From Candidatus Altiarchaeia archaeon (GTDB taxonomy: Archaea; Altiarchaeota; Altiarchaeia; IMC4; QMZM01), in NCBI GenBank assembly GCA_049299895.1, contig JBAQYF010000031.1, forward strand, positions 96,644-160,643: a stretch of DNA of 64,000 bases. The letters run 5' to 3'. Under the pieces are notes generated by a model. It was given only the letters and a program-made list of their open reading frames with translations, ran no database searches and was not told the origin of the DNA. Each line of letters starts with the position of its first letter. The stretch's first letter is position 1. Shown here piece after piece: positions 12,731-49,851 of the stretch. The position numbers and the translations under genes were made by a program.

Positions 12731-12755
12731 ATTTGAGTTCTTATTAGATTACGAT

Positions 12756-29280: not shown

Positions 29281-29336
29281 AGCATTATCCCTCGATTCGT
29301 ATAATCTTTTAGGAGGACGTGAATAAATTATATACA

Positions 29337-29903: not shown

Positions 29904-30788
29904 TCATCTCAGGCGCTTGCGCTCCTCTTCTATCCGCTTCATCGCGTTCTCGACGTCTATCCACATGCTCTCTATCTCTTTTAGGTCTGCGTCCATCTTC
30001 TTTCTGTCGTATTCTATCTTTTTCTCTTCCTTCTGTATGCGCAGCCTTTCGATCTCTATTCTCTTCTGGTCTTCTTCTATCTTGGTCTTGTAGTCTTCAA
30101 GCTTCTGTCCTGTTCCCTTGATCTCGTCCCACTGCTTTTCCACCTGGGAGACATTCTGGCCGAGGAATGCTTTCTGCGTTTCCAGTTCCTTCCATTCGGC
30201 TTCGATGCGTTTTTTGTCTTCTTCGATCTTCTGCATGTCTCCGGATCTCTGCCTCTTTATCTCTTCCAGCTCTTTCAGCTGGTCTGCGATGACCTGCATG
30301 TCGCACTCGAGTTTTTTTCTGTCCTCGTCCAAGTAAACCCTGCCCATCTCTATCTGCTTCCTCGTTTCTTCGAGGTCTTCGGGACGCAATTCCTGTATCT
30401 TCCTCCCCTGTTCCTCCCAGAGCATCTCCTTGGATTTTATCTCCTCCCATTTCTTGTTGACGGTCGCAAGCTCTTTTTCAAGGCTTTTTTTCTGGACTGT
30501 TATCTCCTCTTTTTCCCGGTCCAGGTCTTCGTCGAGGCGCAGTCTCTGCTTTATGAGTTCGGTCTTCTCCTCGTCCATGAGCTTTTTTTCGTAGCGGATG
30601 TTTCTGAAATTTATGAATGCAAGAGTGAATGTCAGGAGCAGGACGATAAACGTCAGATAGATTATCACGTCTTCCAGGCTCCCGGGGATCGCATCAAAAG
30701 CGTAGGCGCGGCCTGCCAGGGAAAACAGCAGGGATAGAACTGAACCGGTACGCAACCGCCCCGACTCAAAGAGACTCTTCAGTGACAT
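29904..30788 (-). CDS. N-terminally membrane-anchored coiled-coil protein, E/K-rich with periodic Trp
   Basis: Start set at 'MSLKSLFE'. One TM helix ('IIYLTFIVLLLTFTLAFI') followed by ~230 aa of heptad-like E/K/R repeats: 'KKWEEIKSKE', 'EAEWKELETQK', 'EKQWDEIKG'. Confidence 0.6.
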   Translation of the reverse strand: MSLKSLFESGRLRTGSVLSLLFSLAGRAYAFDAIPGSLEDVIIYLTFIVLLLTFTLAFINFRNIRYEKKLMDEEKTELIKQRLRLDEDLDREKEEITVQKKSLEKELATVNKKWEEIKSKEMLWEEQGRKIQELRPEDLEETRKQIEMGRVYLDEDRKKLECDMQVIADQLKELEEIKRQRSGDMQKIEEDKKRIEAEWKELETQKAFLGQNVSQVEKQWDEIKGTGQKLEDYKTKIEEDQKRIEIERLRIQKEEKKIEYDRKKMDADLKEIESMWIDVENAMKRIEEERKRLR

Positions 30789-30852: not shown

Positions 30853-31860
30853 TCATGCGGGGATGCAACAGGGTATGCTGGTAGCCCCAAGATCGCAGGT
30901 TGTCCATGCGCAGTCCGTCGGGACCCAGCCTCCTTTGGAGAGTGCACATGGATTCGAGGTACAGGCTGCTTCACCCAGATATTGATCGCAGGTTTTCACT
31001 GGATCTGATGAACAGCAGCTATGGCATGTTTGCATGTCCTTGGCAGGCCGGTAGTAATAATGACACCCGGGATAGGAATGACAGTCGTCCACGTTGCACG
31101 GTGCCCCAAGCCCATATTGTGAGCTGCAGCAACCCGTGCCAAACGTCCCTGAACACGGTTTTATGCACTTGCAGCACTTTGCGCACGTGCCCACGTTCTC
31201 TTTCTCCGTCCCGCCCTGGCATATCTCGCCTGCCGCAGTATCGCAGCCGCATGTGAGGCCGAATGTCTCGCATGTTTCTTCTTCGACGCATTCGCAGCAC
31301 TTCTGACCCGGGTCGCATCCCGGAGCCGCGCTCTCCTTGCATTTCCTGCCTGCCGGGCAGTCTCCGCAGGTATAGCCGTATTCAGTGCAGGTCTTCTCGG
31401 GAGTGATGCAATTATTGCAGCAGGTATCCGGGCAATCCGTAACGTCGGCGATACTTCCACCGGATGCGCAGACCTGCCCATCGGGGCAGCCGCATTGTCC
31501 CCCTACGTCGGCGCAGTTCTTTTCTGTTACCGCGTCGCCCATGCATTTGTCCATCTGAAGAGTGGGAACAAGAGCGAATGCGAGCCCGAGGAAAGCGACG
31601 ACTATGACCAGTCCCGCGAAGGAATTAAGCATGTAGTCTTTTCCGAGGGTACGGTTGGCCGGGTTGCCCGTAGAGTACAGGAAGGCGCCCAGAGCAAACA
31701 GTATGAGAACGATGGCCGGCGCGAACCACAGGACCATGCATACGACCGCCTGGTCTATCCCGCGCAGGCGGTCGAGGTATCCTGCCGCGGAAGCGGCGGA
31801 TGATAGGAAAAGCAGGATGAGAATGAACAACGAAATCTTTTTTTTCATACCAGTAAACAT
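30853..31860 (-). CDS. Cysteine-rich membrane/secreted protein (~60 Cys in a ~230-aa ectodomain)
   Basis: A signal peptide, then a two-helix anchor with the loop 'LYSTGNPANRTLGKD', then extremely Cys-rich sequence (CxxC, CC, CxC motifs throughout). Confidence 0.6.
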   Translation of the reverse strand: MFTGMKKKISLFILILLFLSSAASAAGYLDRLRGIDQAVVCMVLWFAPAIVLILFALGAFLYSTGNPANRTLGKDYMLNSFAGLVIVVAFLGLAFALVPTLQMDKCMGDAVTEKNCADVGGQCGCPDGQVCASGGSIADVTDCPDTCCNNCITPEKTCTEYGYTCGDCPAGRKCKESAAPGCDPGQKCCECVEEETCETFGLTCGCDTAAGEICQGGTEKENVGTCAKCCKCIKPCSGTFGTGCCSSQYGLGAPCNVDDCHSYPGCHYYYRPAKDMQTCHSCCSSDPVKTCDQYLGEAACTSNPCALSKGGWVPTDCAWTTCDLGATSIPCCIPA

Positions 31861-31927
31861 ATATAAAAAACATATATAAATCAGTTATACCTTAATAGTA
31901 ACTGTGCCTTCAGGTGTTAAAAAGATT

Positions 31928-34900
31928 ATGAACCGGAACAAACGACTCTTATGCATATCCGTGGTTTTCGCGGCTTTTTTCTTGTCGTACTCCGGTCAGG
32001 CATTCGCCGAACTGGCCTCCTGCAGCAAGTATCAGTATATCAACGTCAAGATCGCGCCTGAGGATACGAAAAATCCAAGACTGGAGCAGTTCCACGGGAT
32101 AGACACTGGCATCCATGACAGTTTCATCATCCAGGGCCCTTACAATCCCACGTATATCTGCGGCATAATGCTCAACGAGAAGCTGGACTGGAGCACGGAT
32201 TCTCTTGCCGCAGCCTGGGCCGCCAAGGGTACGACCATTAAGAAGGACGGGATAAGCATCAAGGAGGACCTGGGCGAAAATGGGAACGGCTGGCAGCTTT
32301 GCAGCGATGAGGACTGCGATAGCAATGATGCCTGCAGGATAGACGTAGGATTGATAGCTGCGTCAGGCCCGCATTGCGCACCATACGGCGTAAGCGATGA
32401 AAAAGAGAAATCAAAGAACAGCCACGGAGCAGTGATGGTCTTTGAACAGAGGTATATGGAAATGGCTTCAGATAACGGAGATACGTCTCTTTCAGTGAGC
32501 CCGACAATATACCGGCCCCTCTACGACTTGTTATGCGACGCCAAAGGGTATTGGTACGCCTGCGACAAAGAATCGTGCGCATGCGTTGACGACTATTCCT
32601 GCGGCAGCACGTCGGAAGGAAAGTGGGATTTCTGCCAGTACGGATGCGATCCCGCAACTGGAAAATGCAAAAGCGGCGAAGCGGTCAAGGATTGCTCTCC
32701 TGCAGAGGTTGCCGTAGGCGAGAGTCTCGGGCCGTTCGTGGATTCATGCAACATTGATGTCACACTAGAAGGATTAGATCAGGGCAATAACAGGGTCACG
32801 CTAGGACCGGTCACCTATGGTAAGGACGGCCAAAAGGACCTGCTGGTGGTTGATTGCGACGGCAGCGAGCAGGTAGTGACTACTGAAGAGGACACGGGCC
32901 AGGGCGAGAAGACGTGTTATGTGACCTGTAGCGGCTTGTTTTATGAGGGGAACGTTTTGAAGCCTGCCCTGGAAGTATGTTATAGGTATCCTGAGCCTGA
33001 AGAAAAGGAAGAGCCCAAGCCCGGACCCACGACGACGACCACCACGCTTTCTGAGACGCCTATCCCGAAAAAGGATATCAAGCCAAGTCCTCCGGTGCCT
33101 GTTTGCAAGCCGTATTATGAAGTGATGACCGTCCGGGGCGAGTCCTCCGATACGCCGGAAGTAAAAGAACCCGGCGAGTGCAAGTATACTGAAACGATAG
33201 AAATAAACCGGTCGGATAATTGCAAGAAGATCGGAGGAGACCTGAAGGATGAGAATTATAAGAAGATAGACATACCCGTATGCAAAGCTACCGGGAGCGT
33301 AGTCGAAGAAATGGGAAAGGACGTCATCGGGAATCCTTACGACTTCGAAGGCGAGAGAAAGAGGAGGGGGGGAGTAATATGCGACGGGGGGATAACCGAC
33401 GTAGGGTGGAATATCCAGGGGGACGAAATAGAGATATCGGTGGAATCCATGAGCGGCGCCAACGCCTCGGGCGATTACGACGACAACTGCGAATACATGG
33501 TCTGTCTCTATAAAACGAACGGCGAGAGGATAAAGTGCGGCGACGGGTTGACGACCCAGTGGTATGCGCGGGCAGAAGAAGAGGTCTTCCAGACCAATTA
33601 TTCCTCCATGGGCCTGGGGCAGTTCCTGTCTCTTGACACGCTTCTCGGATGGAATATAGACGACCTCGGGGGCAATTTCCAGATAGAACTGTTCTCCCGG
33701 CTGGAAGGAAAGCAGCCGGAAACGAACATCGAGAACCAGACATTCGAACTGTGCAAAGAGGGTTTTCTCACGCTGTGCACCGCCAACGAAAGCGAGAAAC
33801 AGTTCTGGATATTCCCGACCAACGTGACAAAAACAGTTTACTGGGGAGTTGAAGGAAGCGAATATTCCAATCTTGCCACAAAAAAGGAAGGCACAAATGA
33901 AACTACATGGCTCCTGAACAATTCCAGGTACTTGATGATGGATCTCAAGACCTGCATGATAAGCGACAAGTACGGCACCCCCAACGAGATCAAATATTAC
34001 ACTATCGCAAACGACCCGGCTTACAGAATTTATGTGAACGAAAGTTACGGGAACGAGACATACTACAAAAAATACCTGAACATGTCCCTTGACTCGGACT
34101 ATCTTTACTGCTACAAGACGGACCTGCGCAACACCAGCGGATGCGATGAGATGAACTACAACTGGTACAGCTTCACAGGCTACAACATAGACGAAATAGG
34201 GCGGGCTTACAGAGAAGACCTGAAGAATTGGAACAAAAACCAGGCCGTCGACGAATTATCCACGCTGGACATGGGCCGATCGAAAGTTGTCCCGGTTTAC
34301 GACCCGCACCCCTGCTCAGTCTCCATGGACAAGGATTATTACAAGGAGCAGGACACTATCACCATCGCATACACGAACACTGGCATTGAATGCAGCATGG
34401 CGCTTTACCCGTGGTCTCCCGATAAATCGGCAGGGCCGGTTAAGGAATGGACAGTTTACGGTTCCGGAACGCAAAACTACACCCTGAAGAAGGAAGATGC
34501 CCCGGGCAACTATACGATAGTCCTGAACTGCGGCGAGTGCTACGTAAAAGACAGAGCCTACGTCAACGTATCCATTATACAGAACGTCATGTCGCGCGTA
34601 TTCACAGTGTCGCCGTTCCTAGAGGACATACGGAACTCCCTGACTTGGACGGAGACTGGAGATAGCACCCTGTACGCGGGAGCAGGCTTCGACAGATACG
34701 ACCGCTGCGCTTTGTCATGCAACGCGAGCGATACGAAATTCAGGCTGCTCTCCGGCTGCTCCAACGCCCGGGGATCCGATGCAGTAGCATGCTCGAACTG
34801 CACAGACGAAGGGAACTGCACGGTAGACTCAAACGGCAAATGCCCCGGCACCAAGGGAGACTGCTGGGACCAGGTATGCAGGATTAGGTCGAGGAACTAC

Positions 34901-37900
34901 GCCCTGGAAGCAGAGCCGGGCAAAAAAGGGGATTCATTCCACGGCGTGCCCTATAATGGAAAGTGCCCGGCAGGTTTCCCGAAAGAGCCCATACAAATAG
35001 ATTATTACACAAGGCCCGCGGACGATGCAATGTGGAGCGTCGACGCCGGCGCCCTGGACCAGGGTCAGGTTGCGACCAAATGCTATCTTGACGGGGGAGT
35101 TATAGCGACGACGACATTCGATTTCAATTCATTGAAGGATAACGGACCTCTTGTGGATATGGTTTTCGTCATAGACACATCGGGTTCCATGGATCCCACA
35201 TGGGGCACCCTATGCGACATTATAGACCAAAAAGTCGTAAATACCCTCCATGATGCGGGCATCAACCTGCAGCATTATATATACGGGCTGGATAAAATTA
35301 AAAAATGCGCCAAGGGAGTTATACCGCTGCACGAAGAGAGCTGGGGCCCTGGGCTGGACTGGGTTTGGGAAAACCACACAGGCTGGAGAGAGGGGGCCAA
35401 AAGAGTTGTCATTGCGATAAGCGACCAAGACGGGGAAAAGGGAGAAGACAACCCGGAGTGGGACGAAACAAAACAGAGAAGTGTCGCAGGACACCTCATA
35501 AGCAAGAACATAATAATGAACGGCCTCTTCGTGTCGGGCGGAGATCCAAAAGTCCAGACAGAGATGGCGACAGTTTCCGGCCTGACAGGGGGGATCACCG
35601 CTCCTTTCGGCTCCGCGGAAGCGGTCGCAGAGAAATTGATAGAAATTGCTAAGGACATCAAAAAACCGGTATACGTTGTCGCCAGCAACGCCACTATCTA
35701 CATGAACCAGACCGCGCCCAACGTATGGGTTCTCTACCAGAACGAGAGCCAGAACGTATCAGTCAACGTTTCCAAGACCAAGGCAAAGACATCGAACGAA
35801 GAGAACCCGGGCGAAGCGGCCCAGACCGAGGAACTGAACCTGACGGTCTATCCGTCTCTCATGATCGTAGAAACCGCCAATATGCCTTTCAATATCACTT
35901 ATGTGAACATAACAAGGAACGGCAGCAGATACAATATAACGAGGGTCTATGTTCCGAACGAAACGGGCGCGGACTATGGAAAAGAGTTCATCGTTACCTC
36001 GAAATTAATCCTGAATTACACCCTGCTGGAGTCTGCAGAGTCGTTCACGGTGGATCTGAACAACTCGTACTACACGCAGGTGCGAAGGGACATAGATTAC
36101 GTTGCCTGCGATTACAAAACATGCGGGGGGGGCAATTACATGAATTACACGCTCGCCCCGAATGGCAGAGGTAATACCGCAAGCTGCGGGAACATCAGCT
36201 CCAAGGGGGAGGGCAGCATAAAGACTTACAGGCAGGAAACGCAGACAGAGTTCCTGGAAAAGGAATACGGCGAAGTAGACACGCTCGAGGTGGATGCGGT
36301 AAGCCATCAGAACGTTCTCTGCAGCACCCTGGACCAGTTGAAGATAGAGGGGACGTTCGAAGAATACTATGACCCGGGCGGGAATCTTATGATATATTCC
36401 GCAAGCGACGACCCGGTTAAAATAACGATAACGCCCGACATACTGAGCGGTTTCACATTCATAGTGAACGACTCGGCCGTGGCATACAGCGCCCTCTATT
36501 ATCCCGCAAGACACCAGCTTACAAGAAAGGAGTCTGCGCCCTACTCGGACTGGGAGTGGAGAAGCCTCATAGACAAATACGGCTACCAGGATCAAAGGTT
36601 CGGCTTCCCGGAGCAGTGCAAGAAGCTGTGCCCGGCGCTGAGATGCAGCTGCCAGCCAAACGATCGGTTGAACGCCTCATGCATTGACTTTGAATCCGGC
36701 TCCTCCGCAAAAAGAACCGACTGTGCCTGCGTTCCCCAGGAATGTTACCCTGATCCCTGCGTCTCCAACAGGACGTACCACGAAGAGGAGGGAAGCGTTG
36801 TCGCTAACGGAGACTATGAGACGGGCGATCTTTCTTTCTGGAGCAAGACGGATGTAGGAGGTACCGCAGACGTCGTTCTCTCGGGTCATTCAGGTTACAT
36901 GCTCAAGCTCAAAGGAGGCGTGCAGCAGGTCCTTGCGAACCTCAGCACAAACCCGTACAACAAGGTATGCATAGAATACGCCCTCGCAGAATACAGCGCA
37001 GACGGAGGGATCAATCTCACCATCACTGTCGATGGGAAAGACAATTCTTTCGAAGTATGGAAGAACACGGAAGAATGCCCCGACTGCCTGGGCTGGAACA
37101 AGAAATGTTTTCCTGCAGACGGTTACATATCTAAAGTAAAGGTCGAAAGCAAAACCCTTGCGTGGATAGACAATATTAACTACGGCAAATACTACGACTA
37201 CGTGGGAATGAGCACATACGCGACTGTGAACCTGGAGTACATGGACTTCATAGCAAAGGGCTGGCAGTCCTTCGGCATGCTTAAAACCTCGGCCATAACG
37301 CACAATGCCAACACATACAGCTTCGAAGTAGAAAGCCTGCCCAGGGTTTACATGGATAACCGGAACTTCCAGATCCCAAAGGAGAAGGTAGCGGCCATAT
37401 TAAGCGAACTTGCAGCGTATTCCGGGCAGGAATCATCTGGGGAAGGGCTGACGGAACTGAAAAAAGCATTCGCGGAAAACGGAGTATCCCTGAATAAATA
37501 CGTGCAAGTAGAGGATAATAACGGGAACTGGCGCGTGATTAACGGAAAGAGGAATTACGATTTATACCGGGACGCAGACGGCAACATCAAGGTAATGGGC
37601 ATAGGCTATGAGTACGCGACACTCTCGGAGGACGATTACAAGAACGGCTATTTTGTGATAAAGACATTCTTCAAGGATCTCTACATCCCCATGTCTCCCA
37701 ATGTCAAGCAATCCAGAACAGGGGAAGACCCGATATGCTACGACGTAGACATCAAATTCAGGAAGCCCACCGTGCTCACAGTGGACGTATCGCCCAGCGG
37801 CTACACTCTTACGCCCGGAACAAGAGTGACTGCGACATACACGCTCACATATTATAACGGAACACCCGTCCCAAATCAAAAAGTATACGTGGATCTTGCA

Positions 37901-38506
37901 GGCCAGGATATCTGGAAACTGTCACCCGAAGGAGTATACAAAGATTACATGTTCTCTATCCAGGAGATTGAAGACAACGCAGAGCAGCAGGAAATGCTGC
38001 GAAACAACCTTGCAGCCCTCGGATATTCAGACATCGCAGAGAAACTCGCGGACGCGCAATACTCAGAGAGCGCAGGGAATAAACTCATAATCACTGGAAA
38101 AATAAGCGCTACCATTGAGGTAGTGGATGGAGTATGTCATATGCTTGTCGGCAACAAAGACATTGTTATCGGAGTTGCAGATTACTTCGGAAGCAAGCTC
38201 CTTGTGTATGAAAACGAGGAGAACAAGCTCCTTGCATACACGATAACAGACGAGAACGGCGTGGCAAAATGCTCTTTTAAGCCGACGGGAACAACGGTCG
38301 GCGGCTCAAGCCCGGGCGGCAACACGTCTTCTCCTTCCTCCGCGAGCACCGGGATACACGTTGTAAGCATCAAGTCCCCGCTCTTTTCCAGGGAGTTCCT
38401 GCTGCTGGGATTAATACTGATATTCGGAGTGTTCTCTTACAGGTATTTCGGAAACAAGAAGATAGATCTGTTCAGCTGGTGGAGGGATTTCAAAGGCAAA
38501 AAATGA
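31928..38506 (+). CDS. Giant (2192 aa) secreted surface protein with vWA domain and C-terminal TM anchor
   Basis: ATG at 31928 (a GTG-initiated ORF runs from 31904). Signal peptide 'LLCISVVFAAFFLSYSGQAFA'. vWA MIDAS 'VFVIDTSGSMDP' near 35165. Very many N-x-S/T sequons. A Ser/Pro-rich linker is followed by a C-terminal TM helix 'LLLGLILIFGVFSY' and a basic tail. Confidence 0.75.
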   Translation: MNRNKRLLCISVVFAAFFLSYSGQAFAELASCSKYQYINVKIAPEDTKNPRLEQFHGIDTGIHDSFIIQGPYNPTYICGIMLNEKLDWSTDSLAAAWAAKGTTIKKDGISIKEDLGENGNGWQLCSDEDCDSNDACRIDVGLIAASGPHCAPYGVSDEKEKSKNSHGAVMVFEQRYMEMASDNGDTSLSVSPTIYRPLYDLLCDAKGYWYACDKESCACVDDYSCGSTSEGKWDFCQYGCDPATGKCKSGEAVKDCSPAEVAVGESLGPFVDSCNIDVTLEGLDQGNNRVTLGPVTYGKDGQKDLLVVDCDGSEQVVTTEEDTGQGEKTCYVTCSGLFYEGNVLKPALEVCYRYPEPEEKEEPKPGPTTTTTTLSETPIPKKDIKPSPPVPVCKPYYEVMTVRGESSDTPEVKEPGECKYTETIEINRSDNCKKIGGDLKDENYKKIDIPVCKATGSVVEEMGKDVIGNPYDFEGERKRRGGVICDGGITDVGWNIQGDEIEISVESMSGANASGDYDDNCEYMVCLYKTNGERIKCGDGLTTQWYARAEEEVFQTNYSSMGLGQFLSLDTLLGWNIDDLGGNFQIELFSRLEGKQPETNIENQTFELCKEGFLTLCTANESEKQFWIFPTNVTKTVYWGVEGSEYSNLATKKEGTNETTWLLNNSRYLMMDLKTCMISDKYGTPNEIKYYTIANDPAYRIYVNESYGNETYYKKYLNMSLDSDYLYCYKTDLRNTSGCDEMNYNWYSFTGYNIDEIGRAYREDLKNWNKNQAVDELSTLDMGRSKVVPVYDPHPCSVSMDKDYYKEQDTITIAYTNTGIECSMALYPWSPDKSAGPVKEWTVYGSGTQNYTLKKEDAPGNYTIVLNCGECYVKDRAYVNVSIIQNVMSRVFTVSPFLEDIRNSLTWTETGDSTLYAGAGFDRYDRCALSCNASDTKFRLLSGCSNARGSDAVACSNCTDEGNCTVDSNGKCPGTKGDCWDQVCRIRSRNYALEAEPGKKGDSFHGVPYNGKCPAGFPKEPIQIDYYTRPADDAMWSVDAGALDQGQVATKCYLDGGVIATTTFDFNSLKDNGPLVDMVFVIDTSGSMDPTWGTLCDIIDQKVVNTLHDAGINLQHYIYGLDKIKKCAKGVIPLHEESWGPGLDWVWENHTGWREGAKRVVIAISDQDGEKGEDNPEWDETKQRSVAGHLISKNIIMNGLFVSGGDPKVQTEMATVSGLTGGITAPFGSAEAVAEKLIEIAKDIKKPVYVVASNATIYMNQTAPNVWVLYQNESQNVSVNVSKTKAKTSNEENPGEAAQTEELNLTVYPSLMIVETANMPFNITYVNITRNGSRYNITRVYVPNETGADYGKEFIVTSKLILNYTLLESAESFTVDLNNSYYTQVRRDIDYVACDYKTCGGGNYMNYTLAPNGRGNTASCGNISSKGEGSIKTYRQETQTEFLEKEYGEVDTLEVDAVSHQNVLCSTLDQLKIEGTFEEYYDPGGNLMIYSASDDPVKITITPDILSGFTFIVNDSAVAYSALYYPARHQLTRKESAPYSDWEWRSLIDKYGYQDQRFGFPEQCKKLCPALRCSCQPNDRLNASCIDFESGSSAKRTDCACVPQECYPDPCVSNRTYHEEEGSVVANGDYETGDLSFWSKTDVGGTADVVLSGHSGYMLKLKGGVQQVLANLSTNPYNKVCIEYALAEYSADGGINLTITVDGKDNSFEVWKNTEECPDCLGWNKKCFPADGYISKVKVESKTLAWIDNINYGKYYDYVGMSTYATVNLEYMDFIAKGWQSFGMLKTSAITHNANTYSFEVESLPRVYMDNRNFQIPKEKVAAILSELAAYSGQESSGEGLTELKKAFAENGVSLNKYVQVEDNNGNWRVINGKRNYDLYRDADGNIKVMGIGYEYATLSEDDYKNGYFVIKTFFKDLYIPMSPNVKQSRTGEDPICYDVDIKFRKPTVLTVDVSPSGYTLTPGTRVTATYTLTYYNGTPVPNQKVYVDLAGQDIWKLSPEGVYKDYMFSIQEIEDNAEQQEMLRNNLAALGYSDIAEKLADAQYSESAGNKLIITGKISATIEVVDGVCHMLVGNKDIVIGVADYFGSKLLVYENEENKLLAYTITDENGVAKCSFKPTGTTVGGSSPGGNTSSPSSASTGIHVVSIKSPLFSREFLLLGLILIFGVFSYRYFGNKKIDLFSWWRDFKGKK

Positions 38507-39813
38507 GAAACAAATTGATAACGATCATGGTAATAGCACTCTTCATATTGCCTTATCTACCCATACAATCGGCGGAAGCCGCTAACCCGTGGGACCAATT
38601 TAAGATATGGAAAAAGAAGGCCCCGGTAAAGGACCTTAGGAATTACCTGGCATACGAACACTATGAGCATGAAAAACTCATCCTGTATCTGCTCGTACTG
38701 GGGATATACACATGGAACATAACGACAGACCTCCTAACCAACCTGGAGACGTATGTCATTATGAACCCGAAGCCCCTGGAGCCCTCGGTCCTGAACGTTA
38801 TGAATTTTTTCATCTTCAACCTGCAGGTAGCATACATCCTGGCCATCGCCGGAACCGCTCTTTATATAATCTTTGCGGCGGGAACGCCCAAGAAGAGGGC
38901 AAAGGCCAAATCCATGATGGGAAGGCTCGTAGTGGGGATGCTCCTTGTAAGCGTATCGCCCTACATCATAAATCTATTCTTAAATTTCACATCCGGCATG
39001 GCCGCAACCATCCTGAACCAGGCGGACAGCACTGTTGCTGCGACAGTATATACTGACCTCATATGGAAAACATACTGGCCGAGCGTGGCCATAATACTGG
39101 CCCCCATGGTAGGGCACTCTCTTGAACAGTGGAGCCACCATGCAGTGGTAGATAAAATCAGAAATGATTATGTAGCATCAAGCGCAGACGCCAGAAGGGA
39201 CAACGTAGTAGAGCAACTCCTCGGAGCAGGAAACCCGGAAGCCATCATTGCAGATACTGCAGATACGATTATGAAGGATCAGGAGCAGATCATCAGAAAG
39301 GATGGAAACTTCAAGGCTGACGCTAAATCGTGGGGTCAAAAACAGGGTTTTCTAAGCTGGGGAACGCTGGAATCGAAGTTTAAACTCATGAAGATAGCCC
39401 CGAAGCCGGAACAGACCTTCGCCTTCCTTATGTCCGAGATAGCATTGATTATCGGGTTATATGGATTCCTCGCCCTGCGCTATCTTATGCTCATGATATG
39501 GACGGTCCTCTTCCCGCTTAGCCTGTTTTTGTCCTCTTTCGAGATGACCCGGGGCATCGGCAGGAACATGATAGAACAAACCATCTTTTGGTCCATACTC
39601 CAGGTATTCTACGCCGTGACCATAGACGTCATCGCAGTAGGTTTCACCATACTCCCGTCGGGATTCGGTTACTTCGGCCTCGGCCTGCAATTCCCGGGTA
39701 TAAGCTTATTTTTCATCAGCTTCTTCTCGGTTGCTGCGGCCTTTTTGTTATTGCTCACACCGATCCTGGTGCTGATGCTATCGCAGAGGCTCAGCCAGAT
39801 GGACGTGGGCTGA
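38503..39813 (+). CDS. Paralogous polytopic membrane protein 1 of 5 (unknown family)
   Basis: Its ATG overlaps the giant gene's TGA (ATGA). Signal peptide. Conserved blocks 'QVAYILAIAGTALYIIFAAGTPKKRAKAKS' and 'LRYLMLMIWTVLFPLSLFLSSFEMTRGIGRNMIEQTIFW'. Confidence 0.7.
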   Translation: MRNKLITIMVIALFILPYLPIQSAEAANPWDQFKIWKKKAPVKDLRNYLAYEHYEHEKLILYLLVLGIYTWNITTDLLTNLETYVIMNPKPLEPSVLNVMNFFIFNLQVAYILAIAGTALYIIFAAGTPKKRAKAKSMMGRLVVGMLLVSVSPYIINLFLNFTSGMAATILNQADSTVAATVYTDLIWKTYWPSVAIILAPMVGHSLEQWSHHAVVDKIRNDYVASSADARRDNVVEQLLGAGNPEAIIADTADTIMKDQEQIIRKDGNFKADAKSWGQKQGFLSWGTLESKFKLMKIAPKPEQTFAFLMSEIALIIGLYGFLALRYLMLMIWTVLFPLSLFLSSFEMTRGIGRNMIEQTIFWSILQVFYAVTIDVIAVGFTILPSGFGYFGLGLQFPGISLFFISFFSVAAAFLLLLTPILVLMLSQRLSQMDVG

Positions 39814-39845: not shown

Positions 39846-41117
39846 ATGCAAAGGAAAAAAGCAGTCTCTGGGTTGATAATACTTGGCATAATATTGAGCA
39901 TAGCAATGCTTTCATACAGCGTCAGCGCAGCTTCGAGTTCTAATGCCGGGCAACAGGGGATGTTTAAGAGCAGAAACCTCGGAGAAGCGGTCTATTATAT
40001 CAAAAGAACGGCGTACGCGTTCATGTCGCTCGATTACAGCAAAGAGGACATGAATTTTATCATAGCCAATTTCCGGGAGCTGATACTGCTTAATCCGGAG
40101 GCTTACAGCAGAGAAGTCCAGGATGGATTAAAATTCTTTCTGGGGATTATACAGCCCATGTACATATTATCCATAGCCGTTACCGCATTCTATCTTATAT
40201 TCATATCAGGCTCGCCGGGGGGTAGGTCCAAGGCAAAAACGTTCATGAAAGACCTGATTGTAGGGATGATAATAATATCTCTCTCTCCTATGCTGCTCCA
40301 GGGACTGATGAACCTGTCCGCGGAAATAACCAATGCCATCCTCGACCAGACCGATGTGTCAATAGTGACAAGAAACCTGGAGAGCACATTCGGGACCCCG
40401 GCAAAGAAGGGCATAACCGAGATCGGAATAGACGCATTGACAGGCCCGGTAATAGACCCGGCACTCATGGTCCTGACGGACGACACAAGTACCCTTGAGA
40501 ATCTGGGGAGCTATCTTCAATCTCATTCATGCACCCTGTGCATCATGCACTGGATGGTAACGTTCACGGAGATAGAATTAGGTTATTACACGTTTCTCCC
40601 GTTCCTGCTGGTAATATGGGGCATGGGAGTCTATTTTTTCCTGCGCTTCGCAATGATCACCCTGTTCATGATAATCTTCCCTCTGTCAGTGTTATTATAC
40701 TCCTTTGAAACAACCAAAGCAGTGGGAAGGAACATGCTGGAACAAACGATAATGTGGATATTCCTCCAGGTTTTCAGCGCAGTCATCGTTGTTTCCGTAG
40801 CACTCGCCCTGATACAGGCCAACCTGAGCCTGCTTACCCTACAGGGCATCCCGGAGGAGTGGGGCGCACTTATAGTAGAAGCGTTTTTGTTGCCTATTAC
40901 ATATCCTCTTGTAGCGGGAATTCCTTTGGATCCAGAGGCTATTATCACCCAGTTAACGAAGGTGGGGCCATTTGTCGGAATCCAGATCGGCGGAGGCATT
41001 AGTATCCCTAATATGCTTGCAACCCCCCTTATTGAATTCATACCCTTCGTCGGATGCTTCGTAATACTCGTTGCTCCTTTATTTATAATGAGGCTGTTCA
41101 AAGGATTCCTGCCCTGA
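39846..41117 (+). CDS. Paralogous polytopic membrane protein 2 of 5
   Basis: 'IQPMYILSIAVTAFYLIFISGSPGGRSKAKT' and 'FPLSVLLYSFETTKAVGRNMLEQTIMW'. Confidence 0.7.
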   Translation: MQRKKAVSGLIILGIILSIAMLSYSVSAASSSNAGQQGMFKSRNLGEAVYYIKRTAYAFMSLDYSKEDMNFIIANFRELILLNPEAYSREVQDGLKFFLGIIQPMYILSIAVTAFYLIFISGSPGGRSKAKTFMKDLIVGMIIISLSPMLLQGLMNLSAEITNAILDQTDVSIVTRNLESTFGTPAKKGITEIGIDALTGPVIDPALMVLTDDTSTLENLGSYLQSHSCTLCIMHWMVTFTEIELGYYTFLPFLLVIWGMGVYFFLRFAMITLFMIIFPLSVLLYSFETTKAVGRNMLEQTIMWIFLQVFSAVIVVSVALALIQANLSLLTLQGIPEEWGALIVEAFLLPITYPLVAGIPLDPEAIITQLTKVGPFVGIQIGGGISIPNMLATPLIEFIPFVGCFVILVAPLFIMRLFKGFLP

Positions 41118-41118
41118 G

Positions 41119-42774
41119 ATGAAAAATAAGACATTGATAATACTGGCGACAGCAATGCTGATGTTATTAGCGCTGGCTCCGCAGGGAGCAGCAAGACAGG
41201 GATGCTGCTCATCACATGGGGGGGTATGCCCGGATGTCTGCCCAAGCGGGGGCATAGGATACAAATGCTGCGACGGAAGCGCACTATCGGATACCTGTGC
41301 CCCATATTATCCGTGCAAGGCCGGTTCGGGAGAAACAAGCGAAAAAGAGACAGGACGACAGGGATGCTGCTCATCGCATTGGGGCGTATGCCCGGAGGTT
41401 TGCTCCGACGGCAAAACTATCGGATACAAATGCTGCGACGGAACCGCGCTGTCGGACAAATGTGCTCCCTATTATAAAGCCTGCGCACAAACAGCTTCCT
41501 CGGATGAGGATAAGTCAAAAAAGACCCCCGGAACAGACAAAGAGGACACCCCGGGAAAAAAGGCCCCGGGAGACTCGGGCACGGAAAAGCCCCCAGCAGA
41601 TAAGAGGCCTGCAGAGACCTCCCCGGGAGAAACGCCCAAATCAGAAAAAAAATCCCTGAAGGATCGCATATTCGGAACCGCGACCGAGATAGAAAAATAC
41701 GGAGAGGATTTGGAGGATAACAACCCGATTGCGCTAATGGCTAAAGGAGCTGCCGGAGCCACCGCAAAATATTTCGTAGTGGACGTTTTCATAAGGCTGT
41801 TCTTCCAGTACAACGTCGTATACCCCTGGATATTGAATTACGGAATGTCCTTCCCGAAAAACTACGAAGAAGCGATACTGGCCAATCCTTCTCTCATGGA
41901 TTCCTCCGCGAAAGGATTTAACCCGGAGATAACGAATGCCGTCGGATTTTCAATACGCCTGATGCTCCCATTCTATGTGATGGCAATAGTCCTCACCGCG
42001 GCGTACATGATATTCATCTCGGCCTCGCCCGAGGGAAGATCCAACGCAAAAAACCTCCTTAAAAGGTTATTAGTCTCCATGATATTCTTTTCGATGTCCC
42101 CCCTCATAATAGAAACGATGCTGGTAACCTCGCAGAGCATCTCTTCTGCGATCATGGGCCAGGCGGACCCGGCGAACGTAAGAACGGTCCTTGAAGGAGG
42201 GATGTGGGGTTCTTATATCATCTTCTGCAAGCTTGGGATAACCGACCTGGAAATAGCCATCCCTTACTGGACCGCCCTTTACGTCATGGCATGGCTCCCG
42301 TATATGGTGATAGGGATGAGACAGATAATGGTGACGCTCTTCTGCATGGTATTCCCCATAGGGATAGCCCTGTACTCATTCGTATTCCTGAGAGGCATCG
42401 GAAGAAAGATACTCGAACAGACCATTGTCTGGGTATACCTGCAGGCATTCCTGTCAGTGGCAATACTGGTCATCTCCCTTGGTTCAAGCTACTATTACCT
42501 GGTCCCGTCAGAGAATAATCCGAAGCTCACAAATTTTCCAATACCCGCAGTAATGGACCGAGGAATCCTCGCGCTATGGGAATGGCTCCCCGGAGTGAAC
42601 CAGGCCGCAAGCATGGACCCCACTACATTTATACCCGGGCTGCCTGCATCGTCCTGGACCCCTCCCCTGGGGATTACTTCAATCCTTGCATTTTCCATCG
42701 GTTCAATGGCCTACGCCCTGCTCATAGCAGTGCCTTTCATGATGCTCAGGCTGCTGGGCCATTTCCTCCCATAG
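41119..42774 (+). CDS. Paralogous polytopic membrane protein 3 of 5, with two N-terminal Cys-rich repeats
   Basis: Two ~50-aa repeats, 'QGCCSSHGGVCPDVCPSGGIGYKCCDGSALSDTCAPYY' and 'QGCCSSHWGVCPEVCSDGKTIGYKCCDGTALSDKCAPYY'. Then 'MLPFYVMAIVLTAAYMIFISASPEGRSNAKN' and 'FPIGIALYSFVFLRGIGRKILEQTIVW'. Confidence 0.7.
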   Translation: MKNKTLIILATAMLMLLALAPQGAARQGCCSSHGGVCPDVCPSGGIGYKCCDGSALSDTCAPYYPCKAGSGETSEKETGRQGCCSSHWGVCPEVCSDGKTIGYKCCDGTALSDKCAPYYKACAQTASSDEDKSKKTPGTDKEDTPGKKAPGDSGTEKPPADKRPAETSPGETPKSEKKSLKDRIFGTATEIEKYGEDLEDNNPIALMAKGAAGATAKYFVVDVFIRLFFQYNVVYPWILNYGMSFPKNYEEAILANPSLMDSSAKGFNPEITNAVGFSIRLMLPFYVMAIVLTAAYMIFISASPEGRSNAKNLLKRLLVSMIFFSMSPLIIETMLVTSQSISSAIMGQADPANVRTVLEGGMWGSYIIFCKLGITDLEIAIPYWTALYVMAWLPYMVIGMRQIMVTLFCMVFPIGIALYSFVFLRGIGRKILEQTIVWVYLQAFLSVAILVISLGSSYYYLVPSENNPKLTNFPIPAVMDRGILALWEWLPGVNQAASMDPTTFIPGLPASSWTPPLGITSILAFSIGSMAYALLIAVPFMMLRLLGHFLP

Positions 42775-42778
42775 AAAC

Positions 42779-43816
42779 ATGAAAAAAGAAAAGATCATAT
42801 CGGCTTTGATAATTGCCTTACTGTTCCTGCCGCTTATGGCATGCGCCGACGACGAGGACCCGACCAGAGCAGAGCCTTTAGCGAAGGTTATCGGCGGAGA
42901 ACTCGTAAAGATGTTGGCTAAATGGTGGATAGCTTACGCCGCCAAAGACCTTTTTGAGTTCCTTATCCGGATGACTGAACATCTGCGGGAATTTATCGTC
43001 GCCAATCCCCCGATGGAGGACATAAAAGGTGCGCAAGGCTTCTTTATCTCTCTGATGAGCCCGTTTTTCGTCCTGGGGATAGTGCTGACTTCGGCGTATC
43101 TCCTCTTGTACTCGGAGTCCCCGAGAGGCAGGTCCAAGGCAAAAGGGGTTCTTGTAAGGCTCATATATGCACTCATCCTCGTCTCTCTGTCCCCCTTGAT
43201 AATAGAGCTTCTTTTGACGTTATCCTCGGGCCTTGCCGGGAGTATAATCGATTACACCGACGTTGCTTTCGCAGGGACAATGTTATACGAGGGAGGCCGC
43301 CACATGTTCGACGTATTTTACTGGCTTACACTGTTACACCGTACCGGGGGGGTGGAACTGCTGCTCCTCTGGGAGACGTTCCTCTTAATCATGAACTTCG
43401 TGATAGCAATGAGGTATCTTCTCGTCATACTATGGAGCGTGTTGTTCCCGGTAAGCCTCCTCCTGTTCTCATTTACGCCCACTAAAAGAATAGGAAAAAA
43501 ATTCCTCCACCAGACCTTTTTGTGGACATTCGTGCAGGTCGGCTGGGCCATATCAATCCTCCTGATAAACGCATCGGTCAAAGGAATGGACGAGATCATG
43601 CCCGGGTATCCTGCAACAAAGATGGGACTAACATGCATATTCCTATTCCTCACTACCCCCAGGGTGATATGGGGACTGATGGACTGGCTCAGCCTGGGCG
43701 TAGAGGTCGTAGAGATAGTCAACGCGGCGCCGCTTTCAATGGGCGCACTGACGATGGACGAGATGAAGGTGGAAAGGGCAGTAATCGTAGAAGAACCGGC
43801 TCTGGAGGGGGTATAA
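42779..43816 (+). CDS. Paralogous polytopic membrane protein 4 of 5
   Basis: 'MSPFFVLGIVLTSAYLLLYSESPRGRSKAKG' and 'FPVSLLLFSFTPTKRIGKKFLHQTFLW'. Confidence 0.7.
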   Translation: MKKEKIISALIIALLFLPLMACADDEDPTRAEPLAKVIGGELVKMLAKWWIAYAAKDLFEFLIRMTEHLREFIVANPPMEDIKGAQGFFISLMSPFFVLGIVLTSAYLLLYSESPRGRSKAKGVLVRLIYALILVSLSPLIIELLLTLSSGLAGSIIDYTDVAFAGTMLYEGGRHMFDVFYWLTLLHRTGGVELLLLWETFLLIMNFVIAMRYLLVILWSVLFPVSLLLFSFTPTKRIGKKFLHQTFLWTFVQVGWAISILLINASVKGMDEIMPGYPATKMGLTCIFLFLTTPRVIWGLMDWLSLGVEVVEIVNAAPLSMGALTMDEMKVERAVIVEEPALEGV

Positions 43817-43819
43817 GAA

Positions 43820-44962
43820 ATGAAAAACATAAGCAGAAAAACACGCAAGAGAATAATAATACCCCTGGCGGCCATACTGGTCATAGGGTTAATGCTCAAC
43901 GCCAACGCATTTGGACCGCTGGTTTTCCTGGGCTACTTTGCCAAAGAATATTCTAAAGCCCTTCCAGGCGCCATATCAAAAGCCGCGGGGAATTGGGTTT
44001 CACTCACCATCCTGCGTTTGATTCTTGCGACTTTCATCTATTGGGGCGTCTTTTCCAGGTACGCAGACGTCTGCGACCACCTGCCGGAAGTCATCCTCAT
44101 GAACCCAAAAGTGATGATAGCAGACGCGGACGGCAACTACTACGGAAACCCCCCGGTGGAGAACCTCGTGAACGCATTCATCGGCATCGCGCAGCCGTTC
44201 TACGTGCTGGCGATAGTATCCGTCGCATTCTATCTATTATTCGTCTCAGGCTCTCCCCTGGGGAGGGCTAGAGCGAAAGCCAGCCTCATCCGGCTGGTCC
44301 TATCCATGGGACTGATAATCCTGACGATACCAATCATACAGCTATGCCTCGACATATCAGAGGTCTTGACCGGGAGCATCCTCGACATGGGGGATACGAC
44401 AACGGGCATAGCGGTCATGAAAGAAGCGATCTTCGGCCTGTGGGATAACTATTTTATGGCCATCCTCTTCAACTACTGGAACTCCGTTTATTTCCTGATG
44501 TTCTCGGGAGTGATGTTCTTTACGCCGTTCGTGATAGTAGGGCTGCGCTATTTTATGGTATTGTATTTTACGGCTCTATTCCCCCTGACAGTCCTCTGCT
44601 ATGCATTCTATTTCACGAGGAACATGGGAGGGCACATATTCAGGGAGACTTTCAGGTGGATATTCATACAACCCCTCTGGGCTCTGATACTCATAGCAGT
44701 ATCCGCCGCGACAATCTCCATGCCGCTTTTGAAAGACCCTACGGCCAGGATGGGCTTCGGCCTTGCGGCATTCATAGTCTTCATAATCGCGCCGCTCATA
44801 GTAGTCAAGGTCATGGACTGGCTGGCGATGCTCATGATAATACTGACGTCGATAGAGTTCCCGGGAATGCACGGCGTCGTGGGTATGATAGACGAATTGC
44901 AGGTTGAAGGCCCGGAAACCGAGGAGATAACTCCTCCTCCGCCTATCAGGCCTCATCCCTAA
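43820..44962 (+). CDS. Paralogous polytopic membrane protein 5 of 5
   Basis: 'AQPFYVLAIVSVAFYLLFVSGSPLGRARAKA' and 'FPLTVLCYAFYFTRNMGGHIFRETFRW'. Confidence 0.7.
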   Translation: MKNISRKTRKRIIIPLAAILVIGLMLNANAFGPLVFLGYFAKEYSKALPGAISKAAGNWVSLTILRLILATFIYWGVFSRYADVCDHLPEVILMNPKVMIADADGNYYGNPPVENLVNAFIGIAQPFYVLAIVSVAFYLLFVSGSPLGRARAKASLIRLVLSMGLIILTIPIIQLCLDISEVLTGSILDMGDTTTGIAVMKEAIFGLWDNYFMAILFNYWNSVYFLMFSGVMFFTPFVIVGLRYFMVLYFTALFPLTVLCYAFYFTRNMGGHIFRETFRWIFIQPLWALILIAVSAATISMPLLKDPTARMGFGLAAFIVFIIAPLIVVKVMDWLAMLMIILTSIEFPGMHGVVGMIDELQVEGPETEEITPPPPIRPHP

Positions 44963-45012: not shown

Positions 45013-46293
45013 ATGGCAGTAATACCCATACAGGAAGAATCCCAGGCCACGATAGAACAGAAAAGGGAGCAGGAGAAGATAATCAAAGTACAGGGCGGCT
45101 TTTCCCTGGAGCCCCAGACCATAGCAATAACCTTAGTCTCGCTGCTGATAGTGTTCTTCCTCTTCTTTTACACGGGCAACACACTAGACTTCCCCTATGG
45201 CGTGAGGATAGAAATCAGGGTCCTCATACCACTTCTCACGGTCGTCCTGATAGGCCTGATAATCAACAAATCCATCGTCAACTTCATGGAATACGAAAGA
45301 GGAGTCGTATTCAAATGGGGAAAATTCAACAGGATAGCAGGACCCGGCTGGGAAGTGATCTTCCCGCTGATGGAAAGATACATAAAAGCAGACCTGAGAC
45401 TGGAGGTAATAAGCCTCCCACCCCACGAAGTAGTCACAAAAGACAAGGTCCGATTCCTCGTATCCCCGGAGATATTCATGTACGTCTCCAACCCAAAAGA
45501 TGCTATCCTCAACGTCCAGAACTACAAAAAAGCAGTGATACAATACGTAACCAGCGCTCTTACCCACACCCTCGGGGACTCTACGTCGGACTACATAGTC
45601 GCGCACATGAACGAGATATCCGACATGCTCGGGCACGCAGTAGAGCACATAGCAAACACCCCCGGAAAAGAATGGGGCGTGGTCGTTCCCAGGGTGAAAC
45701 TCGCATACATAAGATTCCCGGACGAAGTGCAGTCCGCCATGCACAAAAAAGTAGCAAGCGAGCAGTTGAAACTTGCAGCCCATGAAAAGGCCGAAGCGAT
45801 AAAAACGGAAATAGACGCCATAAGAGAAGCAGGCGGAAAGCTCACCGACCCGGCGCTCACATACATGTACCTGGAATCGCTCGACAAAGTAGCCAAAGGA
45901 AAAGCAACAAAGATAGTACTGCCTCTCGAGATATCCAGAATGGCGGAAAGCATTACAAGGAGAACCAACGGCGCCATGGGAGGGGGCAGAGAAATGAATG
46001 TGCCGCCTGAAATGGTCCAGAGATACTCCGAGATGGTGGACAACTACGACAAAAGACTCAAAGACATAGAGGGCAGGTTAACCAGTTCAGAGGGAAAGGA
46101 AGACCGCAACCGCATGCTCAGAGAGGAATACAAGAAAAAACAGCTGGTAGACAAGACCATAAGAGAGGAAGCCGCACCAAAAGAGAAGCAGGCAGAAACG
46201 CCACGCGAAAAAACGGGCGCAAGCGACGACCGCGAATTGACCGAATACAAAGACAGGATCCGCGAGATAAAGAAAAGAGTGGGAATAGACTAA
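45013..46293 (+). CDS. SPFH/band-7 (stomatin/prohibitin-like) domain protein with C-terminal coiled coil
   Basis: N-terminal TM helix. 'RGVVFKWGKF...GPGWEVIFPLMERYIKADLRLEV...VKLAYIRFPDEVQSAMHKK' is the SPFH core. Confidence 0.8.
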   Translation: MAVIPIQEESQATIEQKREQEKIIKVQGGFSLEPQTIAITLVSLLIVFFLFFYTGNTLDFPYGVRIEIRVLIPLLTVVLIGLIINKSIVNFMEYERGVVFKWGKFNRIAGPGWEVIFPLMERYIKADLRLEVISLPPHEVVTKDKVRFLVSPEIFMYVSNPKDAILNVQNYKKAVIQYVTSALTHTLGDSTSDYIVAHMNEISDMLGHAVEHIANTPGKEWGVVVPRVKLAYIRFPDEVQSAMHKKVASEQLKLAAHEKAEAIKTEIDAIREAGGKLTDPALTYMYLESLDKVAKGKATKIVLPLEISRMAESITRRTNGAMGGGREMNVPPEMVQRYSEMVDNYDKRLKDIEGRLTSSEGKEDRNRMLREEYKKKQLVDKTIREEAAPKEKQAETPREKTGASDDRELTEYKDRIREIKKRVGID

Positions 46294-49841: not shown

Positions 49842-49851
49842 CTCTCGCTGT

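Follow-up and report, generated by a model that had tools for sequence, protein, structure and literature searches.

A giant predicted surface protein heads a conserved Altiarchaeales operon with a candidate type IV secretion-derived module

The 64,000-nucleotide stretch of DNA analysed here (the window) comes from contig JBAQYF010000031.1 of a Candidatus Altiarchaeia archaeon. At 31928..38506 on the forward strand it encodes a giant, putative surface protein of 2192 amino acids. Five genes for polytopic membrane proteins, predicted to be VirB6-like, follow directly; genes for small proteins come next; and a gene for a Cys-rich pilin of the TrbC/VirB2 family stands at the end. A second Cys-rich, VirB2-like pilin gene lies upstream in divergent orientation. 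The sequence-only reading of this DNA had described the giant protein as a heavily glycosylated adhesin or S-layer-like protein. The probable identity of the protein changes once its gene is seen to be the first of a conserved operon, in which five VirB6-like paralogues and VirB2-like pilins are also encoded. The cluster is best read as a module of unusual composition, derived from a type IV secretion system (T4SS).

Every related locus has the same gene order: the giant protein, five paralogues, small proteins, and one or more Cys-rich VirB2-like pilins. These loci are L001, L002, and L003; the contig of P0181; L004, from a Candidatus Altiarchaeales metagenome-assembled genome (MAG); and the distant L006. 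Identity of the giant protein to that in the window is 60% in L001, 33% in L002, and 54% in L003. The paralogues always number five, and each paralogue in the window has a 1:1 orthologue per locus that is closer to it than any other paralogue. (In L004, positions 1-6111 of MAG CAVVMY01, the region expected to hold the giant gene is broken into open reading frames [ORFs] 3062-4450, 4239-4958, and 5053-6111; long-read frameshift errors or a pseudogene could account for this.) In several genomes the locus lies between the genes for ThrRS and for AIR-synthase-like/PheRS proteins, and this synteny is kept across genera. The 64-kb window contains no tRNA, integrase, or relaxase gene. Together with the conserved housekeeping synteny, this indicates that the locus is chromosomal and vertically inherited; a mobile element was rejected on the same grounds.

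The giant gene forms a reading frame without interruption (31904/31928..38506, +). Translation from the ATG at 31928 exactly matches an NCBI protein (P0001) named 'vWA domain-containing protein [Candidatus Altiarchaeia archaeon]', whose source contig is 161 kb long. The archaeal assignment is consistent with other genes in the window: an archaea-type ThrRS editing domain; exosome and proteasome subunits; deoxyhypusine synthase; and methenyl-H4MPT cyclohydrolase. The divergent intergenic region before the ATG (31861..31927) is 67 bp long and AT-rich. By direct reading it contains two TATA-like runs, and GGTG stands 11 nt 5' of the ATG; this region may function as a promoter.

The N-terminus, MNRNKRLLCISVVFAAFFLSYSGQAFA followed by E, has by eye the n/h/c layout of a Sec signal peptide (aa 1-27, 31928..32008, +), with AFA before the predicted cleavage site; a hydrophobic N-terminus is also conserved in the homologues (alignment A1). 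The protein contains 71 Cys, concentrated at aa 28-355, 900-1000, and 1560-1730. The C-terminus (38282..38503, +) has three parts: a Ser/Gly/Pro/Thr linker, PTGTTVGGSSPGGNTSSPSSASTG (aa 2119-2143); KSPLFSREF-LLLGLILIFGVFSY, which comprises the juxtamembrane KSPLFS motif and the predicted transmembrane (TM) helix (aa 2144-2171); and a basic, presumably cytoplasmic tail, RYFGNKKIDLFSWWRDFKGKK (aa 2172-2192). The most conserved 60-aa segment of the protein falls in this region. The sequence-only reading had recognised the signal peptide, stalk, single TM helix, and tail, and was right that the anchor is not a PGF-CTERM: the C-terminus has neither a PGF motif nor an NCBIfam sorting-signal match. 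An anchor motif, SYR[YF]F..K.D..WW[RK]D.[KR]G, is kept even in the distant L006 homologue, with one occurrence per locus. (A known sorting signal or general sorting tag was considered and rejected: nothing matched, and in the sampled DNA no protein other than the giant one of each locus carries the motif.)

The giant protein contains 41 N-x-[S/T] sequons, against 18.4 +/- 4.0 expected from composition-preserving shuffles (z about 6); the highest count among 2000 shuffles was 33. The reverse motif, [ST]-x-N, is present 19 times, as many as the composition predicts. Sequon density is 1.87 per 100 aa, about five times the 0.36 per 100 aa of the 42 other ORFs in the window, and 20 of the 41 sequons are common to all three close homologues. 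A beta-rich segment at aa 1254-1424 (35687..36199, +) holds 17 of them, most conserved in P0002, P0003, and P0004; this is the dense stretch that had been quoted before. The enrichment is thus real, specific to the glycosylation orientation, and conserved in close relatives. To call the density extreme, as was done earlier, overstates a whole-protein count of 2.2 times expectation. Along with predicted secretion and C-terminal anchoring, the oriented and conserved sequons fit a glycosylated surface adhesin, and to that extent the earlier proposal is retained.

In the distant homologue P0005 sequons are depleted (4 where 14 are expected, z -3, with 13 reverse motifs), whereas the close homologues are enriched. 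The enrichment is therefore a trait of the lineage, not of the family, which suggests that lineages differ in their use of N-glycosylation on this protein. (P0005, encoded at L002 1298-9010, also carries two large insertions: one after the vWA domain, the other around alignment columns 2230-2480.) A search of 5.8 billion proteins recovered at least five full-length relatives of the giant protein. This family size is a lower bound, set by the word-index limit of the search; a profile with the L006 protein added gave the same five.

Pfam, NCBIfam, and PDB sequence searches left the window's giant protein unrecognised, apart from a sub-threshold match to the restriction endonuclease HincII (aa 642-771; Pfam/PDB E 0.003 and 0.1). 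This match covers an N/Y/K-rich stretch, occurs in only one of five homologues, and was treated as chance. The sequence-only reading had placed a vWA metal-ion-dependent adhesion site (MIDAS) in the protein. The motif is there: VFVIDTSGSM includes DTSGS at aa 1083-1087 (35174-35188), within a candidate domain at aa ~1074-1250 (35147..35677, +). Residues D1083, S1085, S1087, S1165, and D1166 are invariant in alignment A1. Pfam VWA (PF00092) matches three of five homologues (best E 2e-4), and VWA_2 (PF13519) matches two (E 0.025). Moreover, all 16 PDB matches of the A1 family profile are vWA domains; the best, 4rck (E 0.003), pairs the DxSxS motif, the strand-4 SD (S1165-D1166 on LSDG of 4rck), and a C-terminal TGG.

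Domain and structure prediction had been proposed as a check on this protein. Pfam gave no above-threshold match, and an AF2 model of aa 1001-2192, built from a five-sequence alignment, is poor overall (pLDDT 42); two domains emerge from it by Foldseek, and the remaining ones are not definable from the model. In the first, aa 1074-1243, strands and helices alternate (pLDDT 50-71), and Foldseek matches the vWA structures 5a8j, 4fx5, 8zdf_B, and 7o4k_4 (E 3e-4 to 2.5e-3, with large rmsd). A divergent vWA domain is thus weakly supported, by profile and by model. The second, at aa ~1620-1760 (36785..37207, +), begins NGDYETGDLSFW. It is modelled as all-beta (aa ~1640-1750, pLDDT 50-80) and matches the carbohydrate-binding modules (CBM) CBM61, CBM16, CBM6, CBM35, and CBM28 (TM-score by target 0.45-0.58); Pfam CBM_4_9 reaches E 0.069 at best, in one homologue. 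The model points with moderate confidence to a CBM-like jelly roll.

Conservation along the protein is uneven: invariant columns make up 53% of the last 60-70 residues, 25% of the whole protein, and 12-13% of the vWA region, the lowest value. In L006 two genes represent the giant protein. One encodes a 585-aa secreted protein that resembles part of the N-terminal half. The other encodes a 1219-aa protein that aligns with aa 882-1064, 1304-1763, 1895-2003, and 2103-2190; it retains both the jelly roll and the anchor motif, and 23 residues replace the 240 residues that hold the vWA domain. With the vWA domain absent and the scaffold kept, the domain is best seen as an insertion into an older scaffold. 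The name 'vWA domain-containing protein' therefore describes an optional insert; what the family conserves is its anchor motif and its operon partners.

The first of those partners begins within the giant gene. Paralogue 1 (38503..39813; alignment A3) has an ATG that overlaps the giant-gene stop by 4 bp (ATGA), and the same 4-bp overlap occurs in L001 and L002. Paralogues 2 (39846..41117), 3 (41119..42774), 4 (42779..43816), and 5 (43820..44962) follow on the same forward strand. The five show 26-32% identity to the reference paralogue 42779-43816, and have in common an N-P motif; a two-helix hairpin, whose loop reads SGSPxGRxKAK; and, farther along, the block LFPLSxLLYSFxxT[KR]xIG. Paralogue 3 also has an N-terminal extension and 18 Cys. 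(The extension, 41119-41500, carries two tandem Cys-rich modules of ~45 aa, of the form GCCSSHGGVCP...KCCDG (RQGCCSSHGGVCPDVCPSGGIGYKCCDGSALSDTCAPYY), and then a Pro/Lys/Glu-rich linker.) The family has 456 representatives at 50% clustering of 1.84 billion proteins, and its few named members are Altiarchaeota hypothetical proteins; the orthologue alignment of the paralogues found two GTDB species genomes only.

Some members of the family are much longer. In P0038, P0095, P0106, P0113, P0134, and P0144, one of which is from Candidatus Altiarchaeota, a VirB6-like module is fused to 700-1700 extra residues. A Pfam scan of these six proteins found no informative domains. They recall the extended VirB6 proteins of Rickettsiales.

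The likeness to VirB6 comes first from structure. An AF2 model of paralogue 4, built from 32 sequences, is confident (pLDDT 82.2, pTM 0.70). Its top five Foldseek matches in the PDB are all TrwI/VirB6 from the stalk of the R388 T4SS, with probability 1.0 over ~270 aligned columns (TM-score by target 0.41-0.53, E 0.0065-0.016). Unrelated entries follow only at probability 0.41 or below and with rmsd above 17 A. Compared by hhalign with an alignment of R388 TrwI and seven plasmid homologues, the paralogue profile aligns over 175 columns (E 9e-4), setting FP(L)S.LLYSF.PTK.IG on the VirB6 signature GP(I)F.FCLLW.PTK..F. One paralogue, as modelled, folds like VirB6/TrwI, which makes the paralogues candidate VirB6-like polytopic proteins.

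The N-terminal hairpin provides a further link. Weak Pfam T4SS_pilin matches fall on it in four of the five paralogues, including paralogue 2 (E 0.003, along with a pLS20_p028 conjugation TM-protein match at E 0.0011) and paralogue 5 (E 0.0037). A hidden Markov model (HMM) of the paralogues matches the hairpin of bona fide L006 pilins (E 4e-8 in an 11-protein search), and hhalign of the paralogue profile against a small-pilin alignment finds the hairpin loop (probability 15%, E 0.0017), which is suggestive and not proof. The N-terminus of VirB6 and its archaeal relative CedA is homologous to the VirB2 or CedA1 pilin (PMC9905601), and the pilin-like hairpins of the paralogues fit this published relationship.

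The gene at 47198..47884 (+) encodes a predicted signal peptide, a Thr/Cys-rich region, and a C-terminal two-helix hairpin, with 16 Cys. It exceeds the Pfam cut-offs for both T4SS_pilin (PF18895; 52.1 bits, cut-off 26.6) and TrbC (PF04956; 32.1 bits, cut-off 27.9), and an NCBIfam pilin-like conjugal transfer family matches at E 1.5e-9 (37.4 bits, cut-off 40); a PDB sequence search returned nothing useful. By its family matches this is a bona fide TrbC/VirB2-family pilin. Pilin genes stand at the same end of the operon in L002, L006, and the P0181 contig. The divergent gene at 30853..31860 (-) encodes a predicted signal peptide, a two-helix hairpin, and a 230-aa domain, with 42 Cys. Its T4SS_pilin match (E 1.8e-4, aa 46-93) is below the cut-off, and its hairpin loop, STGNPANRTLGK, has the pattern of the loop in the paralogues. 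Orthologues occur in L001, L003, and L002, the last being a 102-aa hairpin only, with a Pfam T4SS_pilin match. (All secreted parts of the cluster are unusually Cys-rich for the surface of an anaerobe: 71 Cys in the giant protein, 42 in the divergent pilin, and 16 in the terminal one.)

These observations suggest, at what we judge to be about an even chance, that the giant protein serves as the large, extracellular adhesin of an Altiarchaeales surface apparatus that is fixed in the chromosome and derived from the stalk and pilus module of a T4SS. In R388, five copies of the tip adhesin VirB5 sit on a VirB6 pentamer in the inner membrane, which also recruits VirB2 pilins (PMC12624023); in Rickettsia, VirB6 is encoded by five paralogues in tandem, and VirB5 is missing (PMC2653234). 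By analogy, the Altiarchaeales cluster may specify a hetero-pentameric platform, with the giant protein as adhesin and the pilins as its other clients. One copy of each VirB6-like paralogue would build a ring, a pseudo-fivefold version of the homopentameric VirB6 platform. After export the giant protein would stay in the cytoplasmic membrane and be N-glycosylated. Its anchor and tail, the most conserved part, would dock it on or beside the ring, a predicted contact by which it would fill the place of the VirB5 tip adhesin of bacterial systems. The Cys-rich VirB2-like pilins would be recruited to the same platform. Presumably the vWA domain binds a partner surface through metal-dependent protein binding and the jelly roll does so through glycan binding, the purpose being cell-cell or cell-substrate attachment. 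If a filament grows at all, the energy would have to be supplied by an ATPase whose gene lies elsewhere.

A more specific version of this proposal is possible rather than probable. Altiarchaeales and related uncultivated archaea would have a new surface organelle, in which a hetero-pentameric ring of five specialised VirB6 paralogues anchors a giant glycosylated vWA/CBM adhesin and assembles or holds VirB2-type pilins with large Cys-rich ectodomains, with no VirB4 ATPase of its own. Archaea would then have domesticated the T4SS a third time, independently of Ced and Ted, and the organelle would serve cell-cell contact (for example biofilm, DNA exchange, or episymbiont docking) across a double-membrane envelope. 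The system appears to be undescribed: full-text literature searches found no description of it, and its proteins are annotated as hypothetical.

Several points weigh against reading the cluster as a T4SS-derived adhesin apparatus. The main weakness is the motor. No VirB4-family ATPase was found by Pfam among the 51 ORFs scanned in the window (all those of at least 150 aa judged to be genes), nor among the genes listed for L001-L003, L006, and the P0181 contig, and VirB4 is needed for pilin extraction in known systems. With no such ATPase in the cluster at any locus, either the platform is static or its motor is encoded elsewhere. Coupling protein, VirB3, VirB8, and relaxase are likewise missing from the window and from every syntenic locus. 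The VirB6 link comes from one predicted structure, with Foldseek E-values of 0.006-0.016 and TM-scores of 0.4-0.5; the hhalign probability for paralogues and VirB6 is 23%; and neither Pfam TrbL/VirB6 nor PDB sequence searches matched the paralogues. The domain calls in the giant protein are soft, given the pLDDT of 42 for the C-terminal half. The window protein has no Pfam PF00092 or PF13519 match at E <= 1, and the MIDAS Thr is not clearly conserved (G-L-D-W in the window, G-T-x-W in three homologues). Finally, assembly, contact between giant protein and paralogues, glycosylation, and adhesion are proposals, and expression and surface exposure are likewise predictions.

Comparison with characterised systems shows what is shared and what is new. 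With the R388 stalk and pilus base (TrwI/VirB6 and TrwJ/VirB5 pentamers, and TrwL/VirB2), the cluster shares a predicted VirB6-like fold and a candidate match to the signature motif; TrbC/VirB2-family pilin genes in the same operon; and five paralogues, the number of subunits in the VirB6 pentamer. A large putative extracellular adhesin is encoded beside the VirB6-like genes, where bacteria encode VirB5. Unlike R388, the cluster has five distinct paralogues in place of one gene; lacks VirB3, VirB4, VirB8-11, VirD4, and relaxase; has pilins with Cys-rich ectodomains of 130-230 aa; has a 2192-aa TM-anchored putative adhesin unrelated to the helical VirB5; and resides in an archaeon, at a chromosomal, vertically inherited locus. 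The Rickettsiales rvh T4SS also has five tandem VirB6 paralogues and no VirB5 (PMC2653234), some of its VirB6 proteins carrying large extra domains. However, rvh is bacterial; keeps VirB4, VirB8-11, and VirD4; has VirB6 proteins of 670-1150 aa; and has no separate giant vWA protein.

The Ced and Ted DNA-import systems of Crenarchaeota comprise VirB6-like CedA/TedA, VirB2-like CedA1/TedC, and VirB4-like CedB/TedB. Like the Altiarchaeales cluster, they are archaeal, chromosomal, domesticated derivatives of T4SSs in which the N-terminal hairpin of the VirB6-like protein resembles a pilin (PMC9905601). As described, they are set apart by their VirB4-family ATPase; in addition, they have one VirB6-like gene only, their pilins are small, and a giant adhesin is lacking.

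Adhesins with vWA domains occur at the tips of other filaments: PilY1 in type IV pili, and RrgA and GBS104 in sortase pili. PrgB is an adhesin of conjugation. Such proteins are likewise large surface proteins that serve in attachment by vWA/MIDAS-type or other adhesive domains, and their genes accompany those for the filament or for secretion. They are not known to be related in sequence to the giant protein, which has a C-terminal TM helix and conserved tail instead of sortase or pilus incorporation, and whose vWA domain is an insert that the family can lack. The Altiarchaeum hamus protein and archaeal S-layer glycoproteins share with it a signal peptide, many sequons, and a Ser/Thr-rich stalk beside a C-terminal membrane anchor; they differ in that the giant protein has no PGF-CTERM and sits in a T4SS-like operon. 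The hamus protein of Ca. Altiarchaeum carries S_Layer_N, NosD, and FKBP_C domains (PMC4975002). A hamus or S-layer identity was rejected, as neither these domains nor any S-layer domain matched the giant protein.

Could the giant protein be a free-standing, heavily N-glycosylated envelope protein, an S-layer-like sheet or generic adhesin with unrelated neighbours? Its glycan would then be made by the cluster at 0-14 kb and transferred by the protein encoded at 58933-60753. Signal peptide, C-terminal TM anchor, Ser/Pro/Gly/Thr stalk, and 2.2-fold sequon enrichment would all suit such a protein, and the glycan cluster at 0.1-14.4 kb is genuine (DegT aminotransferases, GT2, GT4, a GT10-like enzyme, and a flippase). 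However, a function shared with the neighbours is more likely, given that stop and start codons overlap and that the operon with five paralogues and pilins is strictly conserved. The S-layer half of the earlier proposal is also unsupported by the protein itself: it has no S-layer domain or PGF-CTERM, its sequon richness is lineage-specific (z -3 in P0005), and neither the vWA domain nor the sequons are conserved across the family (P0005, L006). The proposed source of the glycan is likewise unsupported: ~17 kb of housekeeping genes (exosome, proteasome, SBDS, FtsY, RpiA, and ThrRS) separates the cluster from the giant gene, and the window contains no STT3/AglB. The supposed GT-C transferase matches only DUF1616, N-terminally, and has no PDB relative. 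Moreover, Altiarchaeales are reported to have a double membrane, not an S-layer (PMC4460559). We consider this explanation unlikely, as is a free-standing S-layer-like glycoprotein in particular.

The two distal loci named in that explanation have features of their own. The glycan-type cluster (149-14405, +) encodes an AMP-binding fragment, a LuxE-like acyl-protein synthetase, a LuxC-like acyl-CoA reductase, SDR and GNAT proteins, three aminotransferases (two of them DegT), a GT10-like enzyme, a double GT2, a GT4, and a Wzx/MurJ-like flippase. A LuxC/LuxE pair within a sugar cluster is unusual. No link between this cluster and the giant protein could be shown. The gene at 58933-60753 (+) encodes a 606-aa protein with ~12 TM helices, whose DUF1616 match is confined to the first 94 residues; it matched neither STT3/AglB, PMT, nor any PDB entry.

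A working DNA-transfer machine, conjugative or a Ced/Ted-like importer, is another doubtful alternative, in which the giant protein would be a mating-pair adhesin like PrgB or TraN and the genes for the ATPase and DNA processing would lie elsewhere. VirB6-like and VirB2-like components are in place; the archaeal Ced and Ted systems are minimal VirB2/VirB6/VirB4 sets with separable genes (PMC9905601); and adhesins belong to mating-pair formation (PMC12624023). Against this, VirB4/CedB, the type IV coupling protein, relaxase, and integrase are absent from the 64 kb and from five other loci. The conserved housekeeping flanks (ThrRS, PheRS, and AIR-synthase-like) do not suit a mobile element, and five fixed VirB6 paralogues with large Cys-rich pilin ectodomains are unlike Ced and Ted.

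It is quite improbable that the VirB6/VirB2 likeness is convergent or spurious, the paralogues being a novel helical family (such as a transporter, or an insertase that handles Cys-rich exoproteins) with the giant protein as largest client: the modest Foldseek E-values, the ease with which helical membrane bundles match, the low hhalign probability, the missing Pfam VirB6/TrbL and PDB sequence matches, and the Cys-richness of all secreted products would suit this, but the high-probability PDB matches are VirB6 chains only, the motif aligned by hhalign falls on P...[W/F].PTK, the signature of VirB6, a pilin above the Pfam T4SS_pilin and TrbC thresholds shares the operon in every locus, and the paralogue HMM finds pilin hairpins.

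The cluster and its surroundings contain further genes. Behind the paralogues lie, all on the forward strand, genes for an SPFH/Band-7 membrane scaffold protein (45013..46293; Pfam Band_7 E 6e-25), which is accessory, being present in the Altiarchaeales loci and absent from L006; a conserved 88-aa soluble protein (46297..46563), with orthologues in L001 (95% identity) and L002 (67%); and a conserved 204-aa membrane protein with a soluble domain of ~140 aa (46574..47188), with orthologues in L002 and the distant L006. The hydrophobic N-terminal region of the last contains two TM helices by eye and one by hydropathy scan; family and PDB searches with this protein gave no informative match. On the reverse strand, downstream of the divergent pilin gene, 29904..30788 encodes a single-pass membrane protein with one predicted TM helix and an E/K-rich coiled coil. 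Translation probably begins at the ATG at 30788 (as listed, the ORF runs to 30974). Only weak SMC-type coiled-coil matches were found, and orthologues hold the same position in L001 (85% identity) and L002 (43%). Beyond it, 29319-29849 (+) encodes a 176-aa protein with two zinc ribbons and two C-terminal TM helices, found next to ThrRS also in L001 (76% identity).

Directly downstream of the cluster, 47913-50571 (-) encodes a 650-aa protein (DUF2226-like N-terminus, long acidic low-complexity middle, and C-terminal winged helix) and then a KaiC-like ATPase; both genes recur in the P0181 contig. The ATPase (49852-50571) was considered as a motor and rejected: it is adjacent in both the window and the P0181 contig, but lies on the opposite strand, and L004 has no like-sized ORF there. 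Farther on, 53451-58874 (+) encodes an 1807-aa protein with an N-terminal OMP-decarboxylase/HPS-like TIM barrel of ~180 aa (Pfam OMPdecase E 3e-14) and ~1600 aa of Glu/Lys-rich coiled coil, whose composition accounts for the extreme AT skew (0.6-0.67) of this region. A 214-aa ORF occupies the same post-PheRS position in L004, matched by position alone.

By itself, a giant vWA glycoprotein would be a modest finding; the operon context adds weight. If the T4SS-derived reading is true, the stalk and pilus module of the T4SS extends to one more archaeal phylum, and its form there is unprecedented: VirB6 is present as five fixed paralogues, the pilins bear large Cys-rich ectodomains, a giant adhesin anchored by a TM helix stands in for VirB5, and the cluster encodes no ATPase. 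Such a system would provide a natural test of whether a VirB6 pentamer can form from five different subunits, the same question that is posed by the five VirB6 genes of Rickettsia. In the literature searched there is no description of the genetic basis of Altiarchaeales surface structures, beyond the hami of one genus. The cluster would be a candidate attachment machine of the Altiarchaeales, abundant subsurface carbon fixers with a double membrane.

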